From contig CAZGQO010000001.1 of assembly GCA_964527925.1 (NCBI GenBank), forward strand, positions 324,808 to 388,807: a stretch of DNA of 64,000 nucleotides, given 5' to 3'. The DNA comes from an uncultured Ignavibacteriaceae bacterium (GTDB lineage Bacteria; Bacteroidota; Ignavibacteria; Ch128b). Every line of letters starts with the position of its first letter. The stretch's first letter is position 1. A program made the position numbers and the translations under genes. Positions 4,243-47,700 of this stretch are shown piece by piece. The notes beneath the pieces were generated by a model, which made no database searches, was not told where the DNA came from, and saw only the letters and a program-made list of their open reading frames with translations.

Positions 4243-5420
4243 TTTTTAGATAAAAGATTTTCGTAAAGATTTACTAATTGATTAAAATAATTCTCAGAAT
4301 CAAAATTGGTCTTAGCAAAATTGTAACAGTTTCGAGAATATTCTTCATAATCTGAATCAGCTAAGTTTGATGTCATTTCGATTACACTTTTTAAACTCTC
4401 AACATTCTTTGCTTCAAACTCAAAACCATTTTTTCCATTATCAAGGAGTTCTTTCAAACCGCCTAAGCCTGATGTGATAACCGGTTTACTAAAGGACATT
4501 GACTCAACTGCACTCATAGGAAAATTTTCATAACATTCTGAAGGAATAATAACGAAATAAGATTTTTTAATTAGCTCTTCTAATTCTTCACCTTCCTTGA
4601 AACCGAAATAATGAATATTTCCATTTGCATTAAATTCATTTATCAAACTTGAAAATGGTCCAGTTCCAAGAATTACTAATTTTTTATCAGGCAATTCTTT
4701 GAATGCTTGAAGTAAAGTTAAAATCCCTTTTTCTCTATCGAGTCTTCCAAAATAAAGATAATAATCACCTTTTATAATTTCTGAATCAAAAGTATGGTTA
4801 AAGTTATACAAAACAAAAGATTTATTTTGAATTTTAGGTTTGAATGTCAAAAATTTCTGTTTCGTGAAGTTGCTGACAAAAATGTATGCGTCAAAATATT
4901 CTGTGTGAGGTAATAAGAAATCTCTCAAGTAACTTTCAGTGACAACCATCGCACTCTTCATCAATCCATCGGGATGACAATTTTTAACTAATCCATAAAA
5001 ATAGTTTGAACCCCCGCATTTCTCACAAATATCTTTATTACTATCAATCATCACACTGACCGGACAAAGTAATCTAAAATCGTGTATTGTAGCAGCAATT
5101 GGAATTTTGAATTTTTTTATTTCTGGAAGAATAGAAAAAGTTATCCCACCTACAATATTATGGATGTGAATTATATCTGGTTTATCAGTTTCTAGGATTT
5201 GTTTGATAACTTGTTTTGCTGAATAAGAATAGAATCGATTAAAAAAAAATTGCCTGTCTTGAATTACATAATCAGAGAAACTAATAGAATTAATGGAATG
5301 AAATCTCGATAAAGTTTTAACAGTGAAGCCTTTAGATTTTAAAAGTTGATATAAATTAAAAAAAACTTTTTCGGCACCTCCACGATTAAAACCATAATTA
5401 TTTACAAGTAAAACTTTCAT
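4239..5420 (-). CDS. Glycosyltransferase family 4
   Basis: 393 aa. C-terminal motif ESMSFSKPVITSGLGGLKELL with the E-x7-E GT4 signature region. Confidence 0.8.
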   Translation of the reverse strand: MKVLLVNNYGFNRGGAEKVFFNLYQLLKSKGFTVKTLSRFHSINSISFSDYVIQDRQFFFNRFYSYSAKQVIKQILETDKPDIIHIHNIVGGITFSILPEIKKFKIPIAATIHDFRLLCPVSVMIDSNKDICEKCGGSNYFYGLVKNCHPDGLMKSAMVVTESYLRDFLLPHTEYFDAYIFVSNFTKQKFLTFKPKIQNKSFVLYNFNHTFDSEIIKGDYYLYFGRLDREKGILTLLQAFKELPDKKLVILGTGPFSSLINEFNANGNIHYFGFKEGEELEELIKKSYFVIIPSECYENFPMSAVESMSFSKPVITSGLGGLKELLDNGKNGFEFEAKNVESLKSVIEMTSNLADSDYEEYSRNCYNFAKTNFDSENYFNQLVNLYENLLSKK

Positions 5421-5428
5421 TAAAGAAA

Positions 5429-6649
5429 TTACACATTCCTTTTCAACTTAATCCAGCTAAAAATGTAATTATATTTTTCCGGTTCTGATTGTTTTAGTTT
5501 TTCAAATAATTCTTTTGTAAAGACAATAAAAAGTCCAAGAACAAGTGATGAAACAAAACCAATCAAAAAGAAAATTCTAATTCTTGGTTTAGCTTTTTTC
5601 TCTGGCGGACCAGCTTTATCAAGAACAAGTACACTTGGAGTATTTCTTATTTCTTCAACTTTAGCCTGCTCATATAATGGTTGGATAAATTCAAGAATCT
5701 TATACTGGATCTCAAGGTTACGATAAATTTTCAAATATTCATTTGCCAGCTTAGGTGCCGATTTAAAGGGAATAAGTAATTTTACATCTTTTTGTGATAT
5801 GTCAGTTCCGCTATTTAATTGATCAATTTTCTTTCTGAGTTCGTCGAGATTTGTTTTTGCATATTTAGTAAGTGGATGGTCATCACCATAATTTTGTTTG
5901 ACTACATTAAACTCAATTTCTTTTTTATACATATCGAGATAAATATCAGCCATTGATTTCACAGTTGCTTCTATTTGCTCAGGAATAGCCATCACACCAT
6001 ACTTCTGTTGAAACTCTTTCATTTGAGTTTCAAGTGAGTTAATATCAGCAAGATTTTGAAGATATCTTTTTTCAATGAATTCACGATTAGCTTTTGCGTT
6101 GGTTATGCTTAATTGAGTATTAACTTCATTTAATCTTTCGACAAGATAATTAGCCATGGTTGCTGCTTTTTTAGGATCTTTCGAATAGACTGTGATTGTC
6201 AAATTTCCTTCTTCTTGTATTTCAAGTTCTAAATTTTTCTGCCATTTTTTAACTACATCTTCATAATAATCATCTTCCATGTCGTATTCTTTTCTCAAAT
6301 CAAATTTTTTAATTACATCATCAGTGATTGTCGCACTTTTTAAGATTGCGATATACTTATCGAGTTCAGTTGGTCCACCTGTCAATGCTGAAAGACCTCT
6401 TGCAGCTCTTGATGCACCAAAACTACGAGTGAGATTTGATAAACCAGTTAATGTTGAGAATAAATCACTTTTTTCTGCGGGCAGAACTGAAACTGTCGCT
6501 TTATACCATTTTGGCAGAAGCAGCGCTGTGATAGTTGCACCCGCAGTTATTATCAAAACGAATAGAAATAAAAACACTCGATATTTAACAACAATAACTA
6601 AGAAATCTACAAATGTTTTTCCGATCGTCATTTCTTTTTGTTCAGTCAT
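5429..6649 (-). CDS. wzz: Polysaccharide chain-length determinant (Wzz/GumC family)
   Basis: 406 aa. N-terminal TM (FLFLFVLIITAGATITALLL), a long coiled periplasmic region, C-terminal TM (IFFLIGFVSSLVLGLFIVF). This is PCP topology. Confidence 0.6.
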   Translation of the reverse strand: MTEQKEMTIGKTFVDFLVIVVKYRVFLFLFVLIITAGATITALLLPKWYKATVSVLPAEKSDLFSTLTGLSNLTRSFGASRAARGLSALTGGPTELDKYIAILKSATITDDVIKKFDLRKEYDMEDDYYEDVVKKWQKNLELEIQEEGNLTITVYSKDPKKAATMANYLVERLNEVNTQLSITNAKANREFIEKRYLQNLADINSLETQMKEFQQKYGVMAIPEQIEATVKSMADIYLDMYKKEIEFNVVKQNYGDDHPLTKYAKTNLDELRKKIDQLNSGTDISQKDVKLLIPFKSAPKLANEYLKIYRNLEIQYKILEFIQPLYEQAKVEEIRNTPSVLVLDKAGPPEKKAKPRIRIFFLIGFVSSLVLGLFIVFTKELFEKLKQSEPEKYNYIFSWIKLKRNV

Positions 6650-39626: not shown

Positions 39627-41752
39627 TTTCTTTTTTCGCGCAATGGTTTTTCTTCGATTCGTTCTTTTTTGATTGAAGAATCCTGTTTTTGTGGGATATT
39701 CTGCTGTTGAATCTCAGGTTTAGTAAGTTCCTCATTTTTTATTTCGCCAATTTCAGAAGTTTTTAAAGAATCAGGATTTTCATTTTCTTTTTTCAACTCT
39801 TGTTCTTGAATTTTTTCCTGTTCTTTTCGCTGCAATTCACTTTCATAAGCTATTAATTTAGAATTAATTCTTTGAGTATAAAGTGATCCTGGATATTTTG
39901 ATTTCAATTCTTTGTAAACCGAATAAGCAGAATCATTCTGTTTTAATTTTTCTTCATAGATGTACCCAATCATGAGAAGAGCTTTTGGTGCATAATCAGT
40001 TTTTGAGTGATTCTGTACTATATCATATAATTTTTTAATTGCGTCTTTGTATTTTCCATTTAATGCGAGTTGTTCTGCTTTCTGATATTCAAGTTCAGGT
40101 ATATTTTTTTCTGATACTTTTGGTTTAAGATTTAATCTTCTCGCAACAGCACGAGTTATTTGTGAATCGGGGAATTTATCATAAATCAATTGATACAAAC
40201 TATCAGCTTTTTGGTTCTCACCTTTTACAATGAAATAATTTGCCAGCGCATAATATGCTCTTTCTGAAAAATCTTTGTCAGGAAATTCACTCACAATTTC
40301 TTGAAGATAGAATCCAGTTGAATCAGGTTGATTAAAATCTATCATAAACAGAGTTGCAAGTTCAAACTTCAAACGAGCAATATTGACTTCAAGTGAATCA
40401 GCAGTTTTTAAATTGGCTTGATAAGTTGCTGAATCTCTCTGGAGTTTGACAAAATACAGACTATCAGCAACTCGTTTTTGTTCGAAATACTCTTGCAAAT
40501 CAGCAAGATATGCTGAATCACTCAACATCGATGAATCAATCTCTATTTCCTGAAATTTTTGATAAGTCGAATCAACTGGAAAAGTCCTCAAGAAAGGTAT
40601 TTGTTTCTGAAGATTATAAATACTTGTCCAGAGATTTTTATAGCGAGTAAAAATATTTACTTTTTTCTGAGCAATTTTTTTGTATTGTTCGGAGATTGGA
40701 GTTCGAAGAGATTTTTCATAATAATATTTTGCTGAATCAAGATTTTTCAAATTGTGTTCTAGAAAGTTTGCAATTTCAAACTGTGCAATTCCACCAGTCT
40801 CTTTCGATGGATAAGTTGTATCAACTTTAGTGAAATAATTTAGTGCAGCTAAAGTATCATTCTTAGCAAGATGCAAGTAAGCATATTCTAATTCAGTATA
40901 ATCTTTATATTCTTCAAAGAGCGATTCAGAATAAAGGTCATTCAAAATTTTTTCAGCAGTTTCAAAATTTCCAAGTTCCCTGAAAATCTTTGCAAGTTCG
41001 AGTTGAGACTTAAATTGATAGTAATAATCGTTAGTATAATCATTCACTAATTCAAACCTATTTTTAGCCTCATCGAGTTTGCCCAGCTTGTAATAACTAA
41101 TTCCCATTTGTAAAAGTACCTGAGCAATTGCCTCGTCATCATCAGAAATTTCTATAAATTCTTTCGCAAGATTAACAAAGCCTTCGTAATCATTTCTTTT
41201 ATAATAGATTTTTAGAATTTCCAGTAATGCCTGACTCCGAATTTTCTCTTCGTCTTTTGCTTCTTGATAAACATCATTTAGTAATCTAAAGGCTTTATCT
41301 ATTTCAATAGTATTTGCATAAGATCGAGCTATCCACAACTTTGATTCAAGATAGTAAGGACTTTCCGGGAAGTTTGAAACAAGCTCGGTGAATTTACGGA
41401 TTGCACTTGGATATTCTTTTTGATAGAAGTAAGACTTGCCAATCATGAACAAAGCATTGTCAACAAATGAACTCTTTGAATGGTACTGTAAAATTTTTGA
41501 ACATTTTTCTATTACAGTCACAAACTTACCAGTTAAATTTCCCGGTACCTGATAAGGTTTATCTGTAAAAATATCTTTTTGTTGTTTTAGAATTTCGTCT
41601 TCCGCTTCATTGAAAATTTTCGATGCGTTGTAATAAATATTAAAATATGTTGTGAAGTTCTCGTAGCCTTTAGCAATAAAATTTGTTACACCACAAGATA
41701 AATTTAGAATAAGAGATAAAATTAAGATTAGAATTATAATTGATTTTTTCAT
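39623..41752 (-). CDS. Tetratricopeptide-repeat lipoprotein (about 709 aa)
   Basis: Lipobox LNLSCG. Many 34-residue repeats of the W-LG-Y/A-F-A-P type. C-terminal Glu/Lys-rich low-complexity tail. Confidence 0.7.
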   Translation of the reverse strand: MKKSIIILILILSLILNLSCGVTNFIAKGYENFTTYFNIYYNASKIFNEAEDEILKQQKDIFTDKPYQVPGNLTGKFVTVIEKCSKILQYHSKSSFVDNALFMIGKSYFYQKEYPSAIRKFTELVSNFPESPYYLESKLWIARSYANTIEIDKAFRLLNDVYQEAKDEEKIRSQALLEILKIYYKRNDYEGFVNLAKEFIEISDDDEAIAQVLLQMGISYYKLGKLDEAKNRFELVNDYTNDYYYQFKSQLELAKIFRELGNFETAEKILNDLYSESLFEEYKDYTELEYAYLHLAKNDTLAALNYFTKVDTTYPSKETGGIAQFEIANFLEHNLKNLDSAKYYYEKSLRTPISEQYKKIAQKKVNIFTRYKNLWTSIYNLQKQIPFLRTFPVDSTYQKFQEIEIDSSMLSDSAYLADLQEYFEQKRVADSLYFVKLQRDSATYQANLKTADSLEVNIARLKFELATLFMIDFNQPDSTGFYLQEIVSEFPDKDFSERAYYALANYFIVKGENQKADSLYQLIYDKFPDSQITRAVARRLNLKPKVSEKNIPELEYQKAEQLALNGKYKDAIKKLYDIVQNHSKTDYAPKALLMIGYIYEEKLKQNDSAYSVYKELKSKYPGSLYTQRINSKLIAYESELQRKEQEKIQEQELKKENENPDSLKTSEIGEIKNEELTKPEIQQQNIPQKQDSSIKKERIEEKPLREKRK

Positions 41753-41889
41753 TTTTCAGAACATTAATTATGGTATTACTTAAAAATTAATAGATTTAAA
41801 TTATTCAATAAATTTTTCTTAATAAAATATTATTTACTTAAGGTGAAGATTTGATTGATTAATGTAAATAATAATCCTTTTATTTCGCA

Positions 41890-42882
41890 TTATACACCAT
41901 TTCGCCAATCTTTTTGCTCCTTTTCTTTTTTACTTTCAGATTTAAACAATTTGGGCGTGTTAAAATTTAAGTAAAATTCTTTGATACGCCTTTTGGCTAA
42001 TTTTACATATTCTTCGTTTTTCTCATACCCAATATAACGTCGATTTGATTTTATTGCTGCGATGGCAGTTTGTCCACTGCCCATAAAAGGGTCTAAAACA
42101 ACCTCATCTTCAAAAGTGTATAGTTGAATTAATCTGTAAGGTAATTCAACTGGAAAAGGTGCTGGATGCCCAACCTTCGTCGTTTGTTCAGCAGCAAATG
42201 TCCATACGCTTTTAGTAAATTCAAGAAATTCATCTTTAGAAATTGTGTTTTTTCTATTTAGATTTTCCCTTGTGAACATACCTTTGGAAAACACTAAAAT
42301 ATATTCATGAATATCTCTCAATGTTGGATTTTTAGCTGAAAGCCAGCTACCCCAAGCCGTGGAGGGACTACTACTGGATGGTTTATTCCAGATGATTTCA
42401 CCTCGCATCAAAAATCCCAATTCAATCATATCCTCATTGATAAAAACATGCAGAGGTATGTATGGTTTCCTTCCAAGATTCGCGATGTTAATACAAACTC
42501 TTCCACCTGGAACGAGAAATCTTTTTACCTCTTTCCATACCCTTTTCAAGAATGCTCTGTACTCATTTAGTGTAAGATTGTCATCGTATTCTTTGCCTAT
42601 ATTATAAGGTGGTGATGTAACCATTAGATGAATACCGTTATCTGGTATTTCTTCCATTTTTTCACTTAACTTACATAAAACTTTGTCAAGGTACTGTGAT
42701 GAGATTTGATTTTCTAAATATTGAGTAAATTCTTCTTTCGGCAATCCCTCATATAATCTACTCGTATAAAAAGGAGTAGAATCGTGATTAATTTTTCCAG
42801 AAGAGCCAAAGTTGCTTGTTTTTGTTCCAGTCTCCTGTCTGACTCGAAGCGAAGATAAATCTTTATTATTGTATTTCCCCAA
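41890..42882 (-). CDS. DNA methyltransferase, beta-class amino-MTase (SPPY motif IV; probably N4-cytosine, possibly N6-adenine)
   Basis: 330 aa. Motif IV LMVTSPPYNIGKEYD precedes motif I DPFMGSGQTAIAA (the beta permutation). No ATG for 75 codons; the frame begins with TTG directly after an in-frame TAA. Confidence 0.75.
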   Translation of the reverse strand: MGKYNNKDLSSLRVRQETGTKTSNFGSSGKINHDSTPFYTSRLYEGLPKEEFTQYLENQISSQYLDKVLCKLSEKMEEIPDNGIHLMVTSPPYNIGKEYDDNLTLNEYRAFLKRVWKEVKRFLVPGGRVCINIANLGRKPYIPLHVFINEDMIELGFLMRGEIIWNKPSSSSPSTAWGSWLSAKNPTLRDIHEYILVFSKGMFTRENLNRKNTISKDEFLEFTKSVWTFAAEQTTKVGHPAPFPVELPYRLIQLYTFEDEVVLDPFMGSGQTAIAAIKSNRRYIGYEKNEEYVKLAKRRIKEFYLNFNTPKLFKSESKKEKEQKDWRNGV

Positions 42883-43515
42883 TTAATTCTCCCTCCAGAG
42901 ATCAACCCATTTTTTATAAAAATTAAACTCTATATTTGTTCTTTGCCAAATAATTTTAATACTCCTAGTATCATCATCTTCAAGTAAACATAAAAGAGTC
43001 TCTTTAGTAATTTCTACACCTCGTGGATTTGTTCCTGGTTTTGGAAGTTTAATATAATTTTCTCTGCCAATTTTATCAAAAACTTTCTTTTGAACCTCCA
43101 ATGGAATAAATTGAAAACCGCCTACACTGTTCCAATTAACATGAACCAATAACATATCACAACTGGGGTAATAACTTTCATAAAATCCTTTTGCCTTTTA
43201 TGCATCAACAGTCCATATAAGTTTAACACCTCCTAAACTTTTACTAGTAATTGTTTTAATAGATATTGAATTTCCAAATAATCTCACATCTACTTCTGGT
43301 TCTGTAATTGGAATTTCTGTTTGTACATTTGCTTCACCATATTTATAAATAAGCAAAGCAATGATTATCCGTTCATGGACTGAACCGACCTCCATTCCTA
43401 ATTTACCTGCTCTTGAACTTTCTAACTCAGCAAGTTGGAAGAGATAGGGCAAATGTCTTTGTATCTTTTCTATAAGTTTTGCATCTTCAAATAATTCTAA
43501 CAAGCGACTAGACAT
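42883..43515 (-). pseudogene. Two small ORFs (105 aa and 90 aa) in one frame separated by a single TAA, upstream of and in frame with the MTase. Candidate nonsense-interrupted restriction endonuclease or partner gene.
   Basis: 43515, 43155 and 42882 are all congruent mod 3. TAA lies at 43198-43200 and 42883-42885. The segment has a possible PD-(D/E)xK-like stretch EPEVDVRLFGNSISIK. Family not recognised. Confidence 0.3.
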
Positions 43516-43914
43516 TTTTTGTTTTTTTCATTCTTTCATGAGTGAAATGGCTTATAACTTTTAAGCACAAACGAAACCATCAGATTTGTAAAATTTATAA
43601 GTTACTTAAGCTTGTAAACGTTTATTCTGGTAGATTGTTAATTTAATTCACCTCTTCCCAATATTAATTATCAAAAGATAATAACCTTTTAGGATCTTCT
43701 ATTTTAAGAGGTAAAGATATCGACTTACCATAGAAGTCAAACAATGTTATTTCTATTTTTTCGATATTTCGTGTAAATTTTTCGATACTCCCGACTGACC
43801 TATCGATAATAAACCGAACAAAATAAGAGTTAACTTTTTCTTTTTCTAAAACATTTGTGTACAAAATACCCTCTTCAATTGGAATGCGTAACCTTTTTTA
43901 ATCCCATTATAGTC

Positions 43915-44322
43915 TTAAATTATTTCATTCGCTGGAATGACTTCTCCTTTATACTTTTGATCATCCCCAAAAAATTTAATAAATACATCGAAATCTTTAA
44001 GGATGAAATTTTTATTTCGAACTGCAATTATGACATTTATTGTATATCCAACACCTTCAATATTTATTAAGATTCCACTAGTATCAATGTAAGAATAATT
44101 CATATATCCCGTGCGGAGTAGGCCAGTAATTCTACCATCAATTTTAATTTGTTGTAAATAAGGAATCGAACTTATAAGAACTGCAATAATCGAAATAAAA
44201 GTAGGAATCCAAAACTTTAAATCTTTGAAAATCGAATACCACGGTTTGTCTTTAATGCTTAGCACATTACAAATTCTAACCTTTATTTCATCATTAGTTT
44301 CTTTTTCTTTAACTTTTTTCAT
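43915..44322 (-). CDS. Hypothetical single-pass membrane protein
   Basis: 135 aa with a TM helix (WIPTFISIIAVLISSIPYL). No recognisable domain. AT-rich islet context. Confidence 0.3.
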   Translation of the reverse strand: MKKVKEKETNDEIKVRICNVLSIKDKPWYSIFKDLKFWIPTFISIIAVLISSIPYLQQIKIDGRITGLLRTGYMNYSYIDTSGILINIEGVGYTINVIIAVRNKNFILKDFDVFIKFFGDDQKYKGEVIPANEII

Positions 44323-44403
44323 TTATTTTTATTAACCTTTAGTTATTTCATTTTTATTTAAGACTAACTTTTATTTCCTTACTTTGCCAAATTCTTAACC
44401 TAA

Positions 44404-44769
<366 letters not shown>

Positions 44770-44774
44770 TCAGA

Positions 44775-47700
44775 TTATCTCCCATGACAATGTTTATATT
44801 TTTTCCCGCTGCCACAAGGACAGGGATCATTTCTACCTATTTTTTCGCCTACTCTAACTGGCTGCGGTTTACCAGCTGGCTGCGATGTTGTTTTAGCTCC
44901 ATCACGACCCTGAGCAATGCTGAATCCATCAACCGATTGATGAATAGTTGTAATTCTTTCTGGTACTTTTCTTCTTCTTTGAACTTGTTCTGGCATTTCA
45001 GGAAACCATTTGAAAACAAATCTTAAACTATCATCTCTTATGGATGTCAGCATATCCATAAAAAGTTCATATGCTTCTTTTTTGTATTCAATTAATGGAT
45101 CTTTTTGACCATAAACACGAAGACCAATTCCTTCCTTCAAATCATCCATGTCACGGAGATGTTCTTTCCACTTTTCATCAATCACAGTGAGAACAGCAAA
45201 TCTTTCAAGATTAGCCATTAGTTCAGAACCGAGCATTTTTTCTTTCTTGTTATAGAAATCTTTAGCAGCTTCAAAGATTTTCTCTGTTAGTCCATCTTCT
45301 CCTAATTCTTGAAATACTTGAGGTGTAATTTGAACATCAATTAAAAGATTTCTAATCAATTCTTCTCTCAATTGATCTATCTCAGCATTTTCATAATGCT
45401 TATGAACAAGATCTGCGATGAACTCATACAAATCTTCAAGAATTTTTCCTTTGAGTCTTTCACCTTTCAATGCCTGCATTCGTTTTGTGTAAATAACTTC
45501 ACGCTGCGAGTTCATGACATTGTCATATTCGAGAAGTCGTTTACGAATTGCGAAGTTATTCTCTTCAACTTTTTTCTGTGCTCGTTCAACACTTCTTGTA
45601 ATTAAAGGATGAGTAATAACTTCACCTTCTTTTACACCAATTCTTTCCATTATTGCAGCAATTCTGTCACTTCCAAAGAGACGCATCAAATCATCTTCTA
45701 ATGAAAGATAGAACTTAGATGAACCTGGATCGCCCTGTCTTCCAGCTCTTCCTCTTAATTGTCGGTCAATTCGTCTTGATTCGTGTCTGGTTGTACCAAG
45801 AATTGCAAGTCCGCCGAGTTCTTTCACACCAGGACCAAGTTTGATGTCCGTTCCACGACCTGCCATGTTTGTTGCAATTGTAACAGCACCTCTTAAACCT
45901 GCGTTTGCAACAATCTCAGCTTCCCGTTGATGATGCTTTGCATTGAGAACATTATGAGGAATTACTTTTCTCTTCAACATTCGAGAGATAGTTTCAGAAG
46001 CTTCAACTGAAGTTGTACCAACAAGAACAGGTCGACCAATTTTATGCAGTTCTTCAATTTCATCAAGAAGTGCGTTATATTTTTCTCGCATTGTACGATA
46101 AATCACATCATCGTAATCAATCCGAATGCAGGGCTTGTGAGTTGGAATTACGACAACATCGAGTTTATAAATTTCCCAGAATTCGGCAGCTTCAGTTTCC
46201 GCAGTACCTGTCATTCCTGCCAATTTTTTATAAAGACGGAAATAATTTTGCAGTGTAATGGTAGCTAAAGTTTGAGTATCCTTTTCAACTTTTACATTTT
46301 CTTTTGCTTCGATTGCTTGATGAAGCCCATCGGAATATCTTCTCCCTGGAAGTAATCTTCCAGTAAACTCATCAACAATCATTACTTTTCCATCTTCGGT
46401 CACAACATATTCAACATCTTTTTCATAAAGAGCATAGGCTCTTAAAAGTTGTTGTACAGTATGAATTCTATCACTTCGTTCTGCATAGAGTTGATAAAGT
46501 TTATCTTTTCTTTTCGCTTTTTCTTCGAGTGAAAGTGAATGGTCATTTTCAATTTTACTAATTTCAGTTCCAATATCAGGTAAGACGAAGAAATCTTTAT
46601 CTTCATTTATGTTTGTTATGAACTCTCGTCCTTTTTCTGTTAAATCGATGGAGTGATTTTTTTCGTCAATTCTGAAATACAACTCATCATCAATCTCGTG
46701 CATTCGTTTTTCTTGCTCGCGTAAATATTCAAGCTCAGTTTCCTGCATCAACTTTTTGTTTGATGGTTCACTGAAAAGTTTCATCAATTTTTTGTTTTTT
46801 GGATAGCCACGATAAGCTCTTAACAATAAGACACCAGCTTTGTGATAATCTGGTTCTGGTTTGTTTAATTCATCTTCAGCTTCCTGAACAATTTTAGCAA
46901 CCAGCTGAGCTTGCGCACGAACAAGTCGTTCAACACGAGGTTTCAATTCAGTAAATTTTTGTTCTGAACTTTCAACTGGACCACTGATGATTAATGGAGT
47001 TCTCGCTTCATCAATAAGAACTGAATCAACTTCATCAACAATTGCATAATTGTGACCACGCTGAACAATTCCATCCATATCAATAGCCATGTTGTCACGG
47101 AGATAGTCAAAACCAAACTCATTATTTGTTCCATATGTTATGTCGCACTGATACATCTTTTTTCGTTCTTCAGGCGACATATGATTTAATATTACACCGA
47201 CTGTCAAACCATGAAACTCAAAAATCTTGCCCATCCATTCTCTATCTCGTTGAGCAAGATAATCGTTAACAGTTACAAGATGACAACCACGTCCAGTTAA
47301 TGCATTTAAGAAAAGCGGCATCGTTGCGACAAGAGTTTTACCTTCACCTGTAGCCATTTCGGCAATTTTTCCCTGATGAAGTACAATTGCTCCCATCAAC
47401 TGGACATCGAAGGGAATCATATCCCAGGTAATTTTTCTTCCAACAACTTCCCAGGACTGCCCAACAAGTCTTCGACAGGTGTCTTTTACAATCGCATAAG
47501 CAGTTGGAAGGATTTCATCAAGAATTTCTTCGTATTTATCATCCAGTTCCTGGTTAAGTTCTTCAAGTTCATCGTATATTTGTTGCTGTTCATCAATGGA
47601 AAGATCTTCCATCAATCTGGCTTCCAGTCCTAAGATTTTATCTCTCAATTCTTGTGTTTCATCGTTTATTTTTTGTTTGAGTTTTTGGGTTTCAGCGCGA

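Follow-up and report, generated by a model that had tools for sequence, protein, structure and literature searches.

On the minus strand of the window, i.e. the whole stretch of 64,000 nucleotides from an uncultured Ignavibacteriaceae bacterium that was analysed here, two short open reading frames (ORFs) are followed by a DNA methyltransferase gene, and it is considered very probable that together they represent an acquired restriction-modification (R-M) operon of the ThaI type, in which the endonuclease gene (R) was knocked out by one nonsense substitution and the methyltransferase gene (M) is separate and looks intact. According to this reading, a ThaI-type Type IIP R-M operon (R and then M, with CGCG as target) would have been acquired horizontally by an Ignavibacteria genome, a single nonsense substitution at Gln106 (CAA to TAA) would have knocked out its endonuclease gene, and the separate M gene, which would start at a TTG right after the R stop, would remain as an orphan methylase. 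It is a general and well-described fate of Type II systems that the R gene decays and an orphan methyltransferase remains, and the locus is in this regard an ordinary decaying restriction-modification module, a known system with a common fate.

One endonuclease gene of the ThaI family in two fragments

The layout of the locus (Table 1) was established from the list of ORFs and a single-frame translation of the minus strand (43560-41887), which confirmed the coordinates that the initial annotation had given for the three ORFs, both TAA codons and the TTG, as well as the single frame common to the 105-aa ORF, the 90-aa ORF and the 330-aa methyltransferase. The methyltransferase ORF opens with the TTG at 42882-42880 and its earliest in-frame ATG is codon 76. 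The same annotation had given 195 aa for the stop-joined product of the two small ORFs and about 545 aa for the frame read through both stops; the joined product is actually 210 aa long, because the 14 codons at 43197-43156 are also part of the gene, and the read-through frame was counted as 541 codons.

Table 1. Coordinates of the features discussed, as positions of the window
Feature	Position	Strand	Basis or remark
N-terminal fragment ORF, 105 aa, residues 1-105	43515..43198	minus	ORF list, translation
C-terminal fragment ORF, 90 aa, residues 121-210 plus natural TAA	43155..42883	minus	ORF list
Codons 107-120, stranded between TAA and next ATG	43156..43197	minus	alignment and translation
Joined endonuclease gene, 210 codons plus stop	42883..43515	minus	ThaI-family Type IIP, now classed as pseudogene
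Premature TAA, codon 106 of the endonuclease	43200-43198	minus	alignment with homologues
Codon 47, CAT (His), adjoining catalytic Glu48	43375..43377	minus	homologue alignment
Second TAA, the endonuclease's own stop	42885-42883	minus	fixed family length
R/M junction: GGAGGGAG, then TAA (R stop), then TTG (M start)	42880..42896	minus	read from sequence
Beta-class N4/N6 DNA methyltransferase, 330 aa, TTG start	41890..42882	minus	PF01555, PADLOC
SPPY, catalytic motif IV, residues 90-93	42604..42615	minus	conserved in all aligned homologues
DPFMGSGQT, AdoMet-binding motif I, residues 264-272	42067..42093	minus	follows motif IV
ORF135, hypothetical protein, one hydrophobic stretch	43915..44322	minus	in inserted segment
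Lineage-specific insertion, 2.65 kb	41753..44403		between P-II gene and TPR-protein gene

When joined across the premature stop, the product matched the Pfam profile PF15514 over positions 1-203 of 203 (E 6.5e-98; 326.9 bits, the cut-off being 25 bits), the 105-aa ORF on its own covering positions 1-98 of 203 (E 1.4e-48) and the 90-aa ORF positions 114-203 of 203 (E 5.1e-36). It was likewise matched over its whole length by the PADLOC model REase_II PDLC03575 (E 9e-93), and proved collinear with crystallised ThaI (PDB 3NDH) over residues 1-209 (E 4e-90). Judged by sequence, the two small ORFs are recognisable as the two parts, N-terminal and C-terminal, of a single Type II endonuclease of the ThaI family with a length of 210 aa, and the search with the joined product, which the initial annotation had proposed as a check, has thereby supplied the family that it did not recognise. 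Uninterrupted homologues, also named there as a point to look for, are present as well: a search of a large protein collection returned 4069 relatives of the joined product, and among the best 120 of these 4069, which share about 75% identity with it, 116 are 210 aa long, two are 211 and two are 206. The full-length profile match and the match to a solved structure both place the product within the ThaI family (PF15514); an uninterrupted ORF of about 210 codons is not what the window holds, since TAA stands at codon 106, and the endonuclease is therefore filed as a ThaI-family pseudogene rather than as a working member. For annotation this means that the two "hypothetical" ORFs can be merged as a ThaI-family endonuclease pseudogene.

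ThaI of Thermoplasma acidophilum (PDB 3NDH, PF15514) is a blunt cutter of CG/CG. Its structure in complex with DNA has demonstrated that the active site is formed by Glu54, Asp82 and Lys93, that Met47 intercalates into the CG steps and Trp107 acts as a wedge, and that bases are contacted by Glu48, Lys104, Asn169 and Arg171; catalysis resides in the N-terminal half, and the contacts made by Arg171 and Asn169 together with the dimerising helices lie in the C-terminal half (PMC3025569). With these roles carried over at an offset of 6, the active-site equivalents E48, D76 and K87 are encoded in the window, are invariant in the alignment and all fall within the 105-aa fragment. The equivalents of the intercalating residue (M41), of two base contacts (E42 and K98) and of the wedge (W101) are also encoded before the stop; those of the remaining base contacts, N163 and R165, are encoded downstream of it in the C-terminal fragment, which holds the C-terminal dimerisation helices too. 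The PD-(D/E)xK-like stretch EPEVDVRLFGNSISIK to which the initial annotation had drawn attention indeed contains two of the active-site equivalents, D76 and K87. The window product therefore resembles ThaI in possessing all catalytic, intercalating, wedge and base-contact residues, and in having an operon partner of the same kind. It is unlike ThaI in that its codon 106 is a stop, only residues 1-105 being expected to be made, in that the invariant Arg adjoining its catalytic Glu is replaced by His, and in that its host is bacterial (Ignavibacteria) and that of ThaI archaeal, the specificity of the window system being ascribed to it by homology.

The nonsense codon and its reproducibility

Position 106 is Gln in 15/19 aligned homologues, and among 67 homologous genes 39 have CAA and 14 have CAG as codon 106, i.e. 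a Gln codon in 53/67. One C-to-T transition, turning CAA into TAA, is thus enough to explain the stop, and the profile alignment passes straight across it with no indel. An altered genetic code, in which TAA would be a sense codon, was considered and rejected, as TAA is a frequent genuine stop that terminates 17/39 long ORFs in the window. A second departure from the family concerns position 47, which is Arg in 69/69 as well as in 19/19 homologues and His in the window; since the usual homologue codon is CGT (39/67), this change is likewise explained by a single transition, from G to A.

Translation up to codon 106 would yield a truncated product of 105 aa in which the catalytic triad is kept. 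This product is probably inactive as a specific endonuclease because it is devoid of two base-reading residues and of the dimerisation helices, and endonuclease activity is accordingly inferred to have been lost. Of the two explanations put forward in the initial annotation, the first, namely that a nonsense mutation has disabled an endonuclease gene which precedes a methyltransferase left as an orphan, is borne out by the ThaI match and by the stop at codon 106.

On the other hand, a dead gene would not be the outcome if the UAA were leaky, with Gln, Lys or Tyr inserted by read-through, or if translation were reinitiated at the ATG at 43155 and the two fragments reassembled; an attenuated endonuclease would then still be live and would provide a low-toxicity "standby" restriction activity. 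Such a view gains from the fact that, besides codon 106, the gene has neither a frameshift nor a second stop, that R has not diverged in excess relative to M (see below), that homologues tolerate any of Q, E, K, R and T at position 106, and that the next in-frame ATG lies just 42 nt downstream. It nevertheless appears highly improbable, given that UAA is a normal and common stop in the host genome and that the stop (GAT GCA TAA AAG GCA) shows no read-through-promoting structure and neither a slippery nor a repeat tract. A fragment made by reinitiation would be deprived of residues 107-120, which include seven family-invariant ones in the alignment of 19 homologues (K107, A108, K109, F111, Y115, P117 and D120), and no SD-like sequence was seen before the ATG at 43155 when the sequence was read. 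The His that replaces the invariant Arg beside the catalytic Glu also speaks against a live enzyme, and so do the stops found at other codons in other genomes, which fit random knockouts.

A phase-variable gene or one subject to programmed recoding was considered as a separate candidate and rejected, as there is no repeat tract and the stops of other genomes lie elsewhere, at codons 10, 79, 101 and 190.

Because the genome is metagenome-derived and is known here from assembled contigs, the TAA could also be attributed to an artefact of sequencing or assembly, or to an allele carried by a minority, with an endonuclease that is really intact. To this only a very small probability is assigned. 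Contigs carrying the locus were found by exact look-up with the 105-aa ORF and with the methyltransferase and were compared by local BLAST. The locus, including the TAA, showed 100% identity among contigs from independent assemblies of the runs SRR11582145, SRR11582147 and SRR11582148, although all three assemblies belong to one study and possibly represent just one population. The identical stretch extends over 2.8 kb in two contigs (L001 and L002) and over 1.8 kb in two shorter ones (L003 and L004), and the NCBI contig of 567,734 bp carries the same sequence. Substitution errors in a short-read consensus are rare and would not recur identically; the identity of the DNA in three separate assemblies thus makes an assembly artefact unlikely, and an error confined to one assembly is unlikely as well. 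The preferred reading, in which a genuine nonsense codon has inactivated R, is retained in what follows.

A separate methyltransferase gene and its junction with the endonuclease

The methyltransferase was matched by PF01555 with 173 bits (E 1e-50), the cut-off of this profile being 26.7 bits, and over its full length by the PADLOC model MTase_II PDLC03350 (E 1.3e-129). FMGSG, at residues 266-270, comes after SPPY, which is the order of the beta class, and the gene is located directly downstream of a ThaI-family R with a spacer of 0 nt. Solved relatives, which are more distant, include the N4-cytosine methyltransferases 8S9N and M.PvuII 1BOO. It has been reported that the partner of ThaI is an N4-cytosine methyltransferase (PMC3025569), and m4C at CGCG has been assigned to M.ThaI by SMRT data (PMC11033074). 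The methyltransferase of the window is predicted, from homology and from the Ser of SPPY, to be M.ThaI-like and to produce m4C in CGCG. It shares with enzymes of the M.ThaI type (PF01555) its position after a ThaI-family R and the occurrence of the SPPY motif IV before the FxGxG motif I, and it is unlike them in its TTG start, its longer N-terminus and three private substitutions, its methylated base and site being predicted ones.

The TTG is the sole start codon which keeps the conserved N-terminal block GTKTS.FGS.G.INHDSTPFYTS. The start is ATG in about 61/67 homologues and TTG in the window, where the N-terminus is approximately 8 residues longer than the consensus. The three substitutions, R30K, V95I and A234T, affect otherwise invariant columns outside SPPY and FMGSG, and on their account M is considered probably, not certainly, active. 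The gene appears intact, and its product, now an orphan, most likely continues to methylate cytosine N4 in CGCG; both its continued activity and its m4C/CGCG specificity are inferred. Its expression could be low, in view of the TTG start and of the loss of upstream translation through R. In annotation it can be labelled a probable CGCG m4C methylase, which provides a methylome motif, predicted and testable, for an uncultured lineage of Ignavibacteria.

The organisation of R and M was compared with that of homologues in the neighbourhoods of four intact homologues and then in the best 80 loci, obtained by scanning a single genome for each species. A methyltransferase of the family found in the window follows R in 80/80 best loci, and the window enzyme is 63-81% identical to these M products. 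Junction statistics refer to the 72 intact loci in which R and M are adjacent: the M start lies at most 4 nt from the R stop in 67/72, the commonest junction is TAAaATG, which places M in the +1 frame, and a spacer of 0 nt, as in the window, occurs in 16/72. M is read in the same frame as R in 17/72 loci and in a different one in 55/72.

These figures bear on the second explanation of the initial annotation, that of a fused restriction-methylase ancestor of all three ORFs which acquired two nonsense mutations. The single frame of the three ORFs and the TTG that directly follows the second TAA would suit such an origin; it is nonetheless refuted by the criterion that the initial annotation itself had set, as fusions were encountered in 0/80 best homologous loci, where R and M are separate genes with their own starts. 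In the family R ends at residue 210, where the Pfam profile is fully consumed, M begins at its own start and is out of the R frame in 55/72 loci, most commonly through TAAaATG, and the same-frame junction with 0 nt is itself seen with separate genes in 16/72 intact loci. As the length of R is fixed at 210 aa across the family, the second TAA is to be read as an ordinary stop. On this comparison of sequences, M is to be regarded as a separate cognate cistron and the second TAA as the normal stop of R. The common frame stressed in the initial annotation is therefore meaningful within the endonuclease, where it joins the two parts of one gene cut by a nonsense codon; its extension from R to M is a coincidence, expected about once in three to four cases.

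The sequence GGAGGGAG before the second TAA falls within the conserved W-R-E codons of R. An SD-like core is present in just 9/39 long ORFs, and for this reason GGAGGGAG at the junction may simply be these W-R-E codons.

Insertion, age of the knockout and comparable cases

The R-M genes are part of a segment that is absent from related genomes. In three distinct relatives, whose SecA is 87-92% identical, SecA, the P-II gene and the TPR gene occur in the same order; between the P-II and TPR genes there is either an overlap or a gap of no more than about 175 bp, with no R-M genes, and in the window nucleotide homology breaks at 44410 and resumes at 41698. The empty site in the relatives, together with the break in homology, identifies 41753-44403 as a lineage-specific insertion, which agrees with the earlier impression of an accessory module. 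The insertion contains ORF135, a spacer of roughly 400 bp in which a 66-aa ORF of doubtful standing is located, and the R-M pair with its broken R. Neither ORF135 nor the 66-aa ORF had a match in Pfam, NCBIfam or PADLOC, and neither has a counterpart adjoining the other ThaI loci that were fetched; ORF135 stands alone in its 90% cluster. With regard to the vehicle, neither a target-site duplication nor a mobility gene was detected, and the search for flanking direct or inverted repeats and for repeats elsewhere in the window yielded just short AT-rich chance matches. No ThaI-family gene was found in the viral contigs of IMG/VR, which provides no evidence of a phage as vehicle. Promoter and terminator scans of 41600-44900 gave counts at the level of shuffled sequence (15 vs 16.3 and 1 vs 1.3, respectively). 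GC3 amounts to 0.19 for R, 0.28 for M and 0.24 for the host, and this likeness to the host suggests either that the module arrived some time ago or that its donor was similarly AT-rich. The window contains 20 CGCG sites against 25.4 ± 5.5 expected, so that CGCG is not depleted, a result which is uninformative on past restriction.

The age of the knockout was approached by aligning the R and M of the window with those of 69 intact R-M pairs and comparing their divergence. The mean identity of the window proteins is 0.708 for R and 0.735 for M, and the ratio of R to M divergence is 1.10, as compared to 1.07 ± 0.12 in intact systems. In columns conserved to at least 95%, R of the window carries 2 private substitutions (the others having a mean of 1.3 and a maximum of 7) and M carries 5. 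Relaxed selection on R, tested against the 69 intact pairs, would be expected to appear as decay, and none was seen. The lack of excess erosion in R makes the knockout look recent.

Comparable cases are found among the homologues, as R has an in-frame nonsense codon of its own in 4/80 best representative genomes, no two of them sharing a position: W101* in a MAG of Atribacteria (L018) and E10* in a Methanoperedenaceae genome (L048), both with M intact, and W190* in a Thermodesulfovibrionales MAG (L045) and L79* in the isolate Rosettibacter primus (L088), both with M also degraded. These differing positions favour random knockouts over a programmed recoding site, and the state seen in the window is one that the ThaI-type R-M family routinely passes through in its life cycle. 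Like other orphan methyltransferases that derive from decay, for instance those of L018 and L048, the window system has an R killed by a point mutation and an M that is kept. It is unlike those orphans in that decay is at its earliest visible stage, with a single nonsense codon in an R that has neither indels nor excess divergence, and it offers a clean early-stage example of Type II decay toward an orphan methylase, in which the insertion can be dated against sister genomes.

Distribution of the ThaI restriction-modification pair

The ThaI pair was found to be unusually uniform although its hosts are very distant from one another, as judged from the 80 loci with endonuclease homologues (L012-L091) and the best 120 of 4069 homologous proteins (P0001-P0120). 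In these two sets the endonuclease is 210 aa long in nearly every match, and its identity to the window copy is 65-77% across distant hosts. Among these hosts are Thermoplasmatales, Methanoliparum, Altarchaeum, Heimdallarchaeota, Patescibacteria, Nitrospirota, Elusimicrobia, Dehalococcoidia and Bacteroidota. Such uniformity in very distant hosts implies that inter-domain transfer of the pair is frequent; a search of IMG/VR returned no copy among its viral contigs.

In the window, the pair came in together with ORF135, a hypothetical protein, and an AT-rich spacer as one insertion. Neither ORF135 nor the spacer was found in relatives or at other ThaI loci, and family matches sought for ORF135 gave none.

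Disrupted copies of the pair

Independent nonsense codons interrupt the ThaI-family endonuclease in four of the 80 representative genomes, as listed in the table.

Co-inserted features of the window and endonuclease genes with nonsense codons in other genomes
Feature	Location	Position	Strand	Remarks
ORF135	window	43915-44322	-	single hydrophobic stretch; singleton in 90% cluster
AT-rich spacer, roughly 400 bp	window	43516-43914		contains doubtful 66-aa TTG ORF
Endonuclease gene	L018	about 5001-5630		nonsense codon W101*
Endonuclease gene	L045	about 5001-5630		nonsense codon W190*; methyltransferase broken or truncated
Endonuclease gene	L048	about 5001-5630		nonsense codon E10*
Endonuclease gene	L088 (Rosettibacter primus)	about 5001-5630		nonsense codon L79*; methyltransferase broken or truncated

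Codon 47 of the window endonuclease (43375-43377, minus strand) is CAT, encoding a His directly before the catalytic Glu48, at a position occupied by Arg in all 88 homologues inspected. This substitution may be a second, possibly earlier, hit that inactivated or attenuated the enzyme.

Lethality would be expected where an intact endonuclease coexists with a truncated cognate methylase. In Deltaproteobacteria bin23 (CP070770.1) the endonuclease is apparently intact (210 aa), and the adjacent methyltransferase, at about 5647-6057, is a 190-aa ORF aligning over query residues 15-151 only. The frame of this short form may have been shifted or broken by an insertion, or the assembly may be at fault; alternatively, the genome may be protected by another CGCG methylase.

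The methyltransferase gene of the window

Only 9 of the 39 long ORFs in the whole window have a Shine-Dalgarno-like core within 20 nt upstream, and the leaders of the endonuclease gene and of the TPR gene are A-rich and devoid of such a sequence. Shine-Dalgarno pairing thus seems to play a small part in this organism, a point relevant to translation of its TTG-initiated methylase.

The Logan contigs SRR11582145_990 and SRR11582147_120518, which are independent of each other, end at the identical base, window position 42601, just past the SPPY-N codons of the methyltransferase; this shared end likely represents an assembly-graph break at a k-mer common to other methyltransferase genes or to a strain variant in the samples. 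The same gene contains one of the 20 CGCG sites of the window, at 42481-42484.
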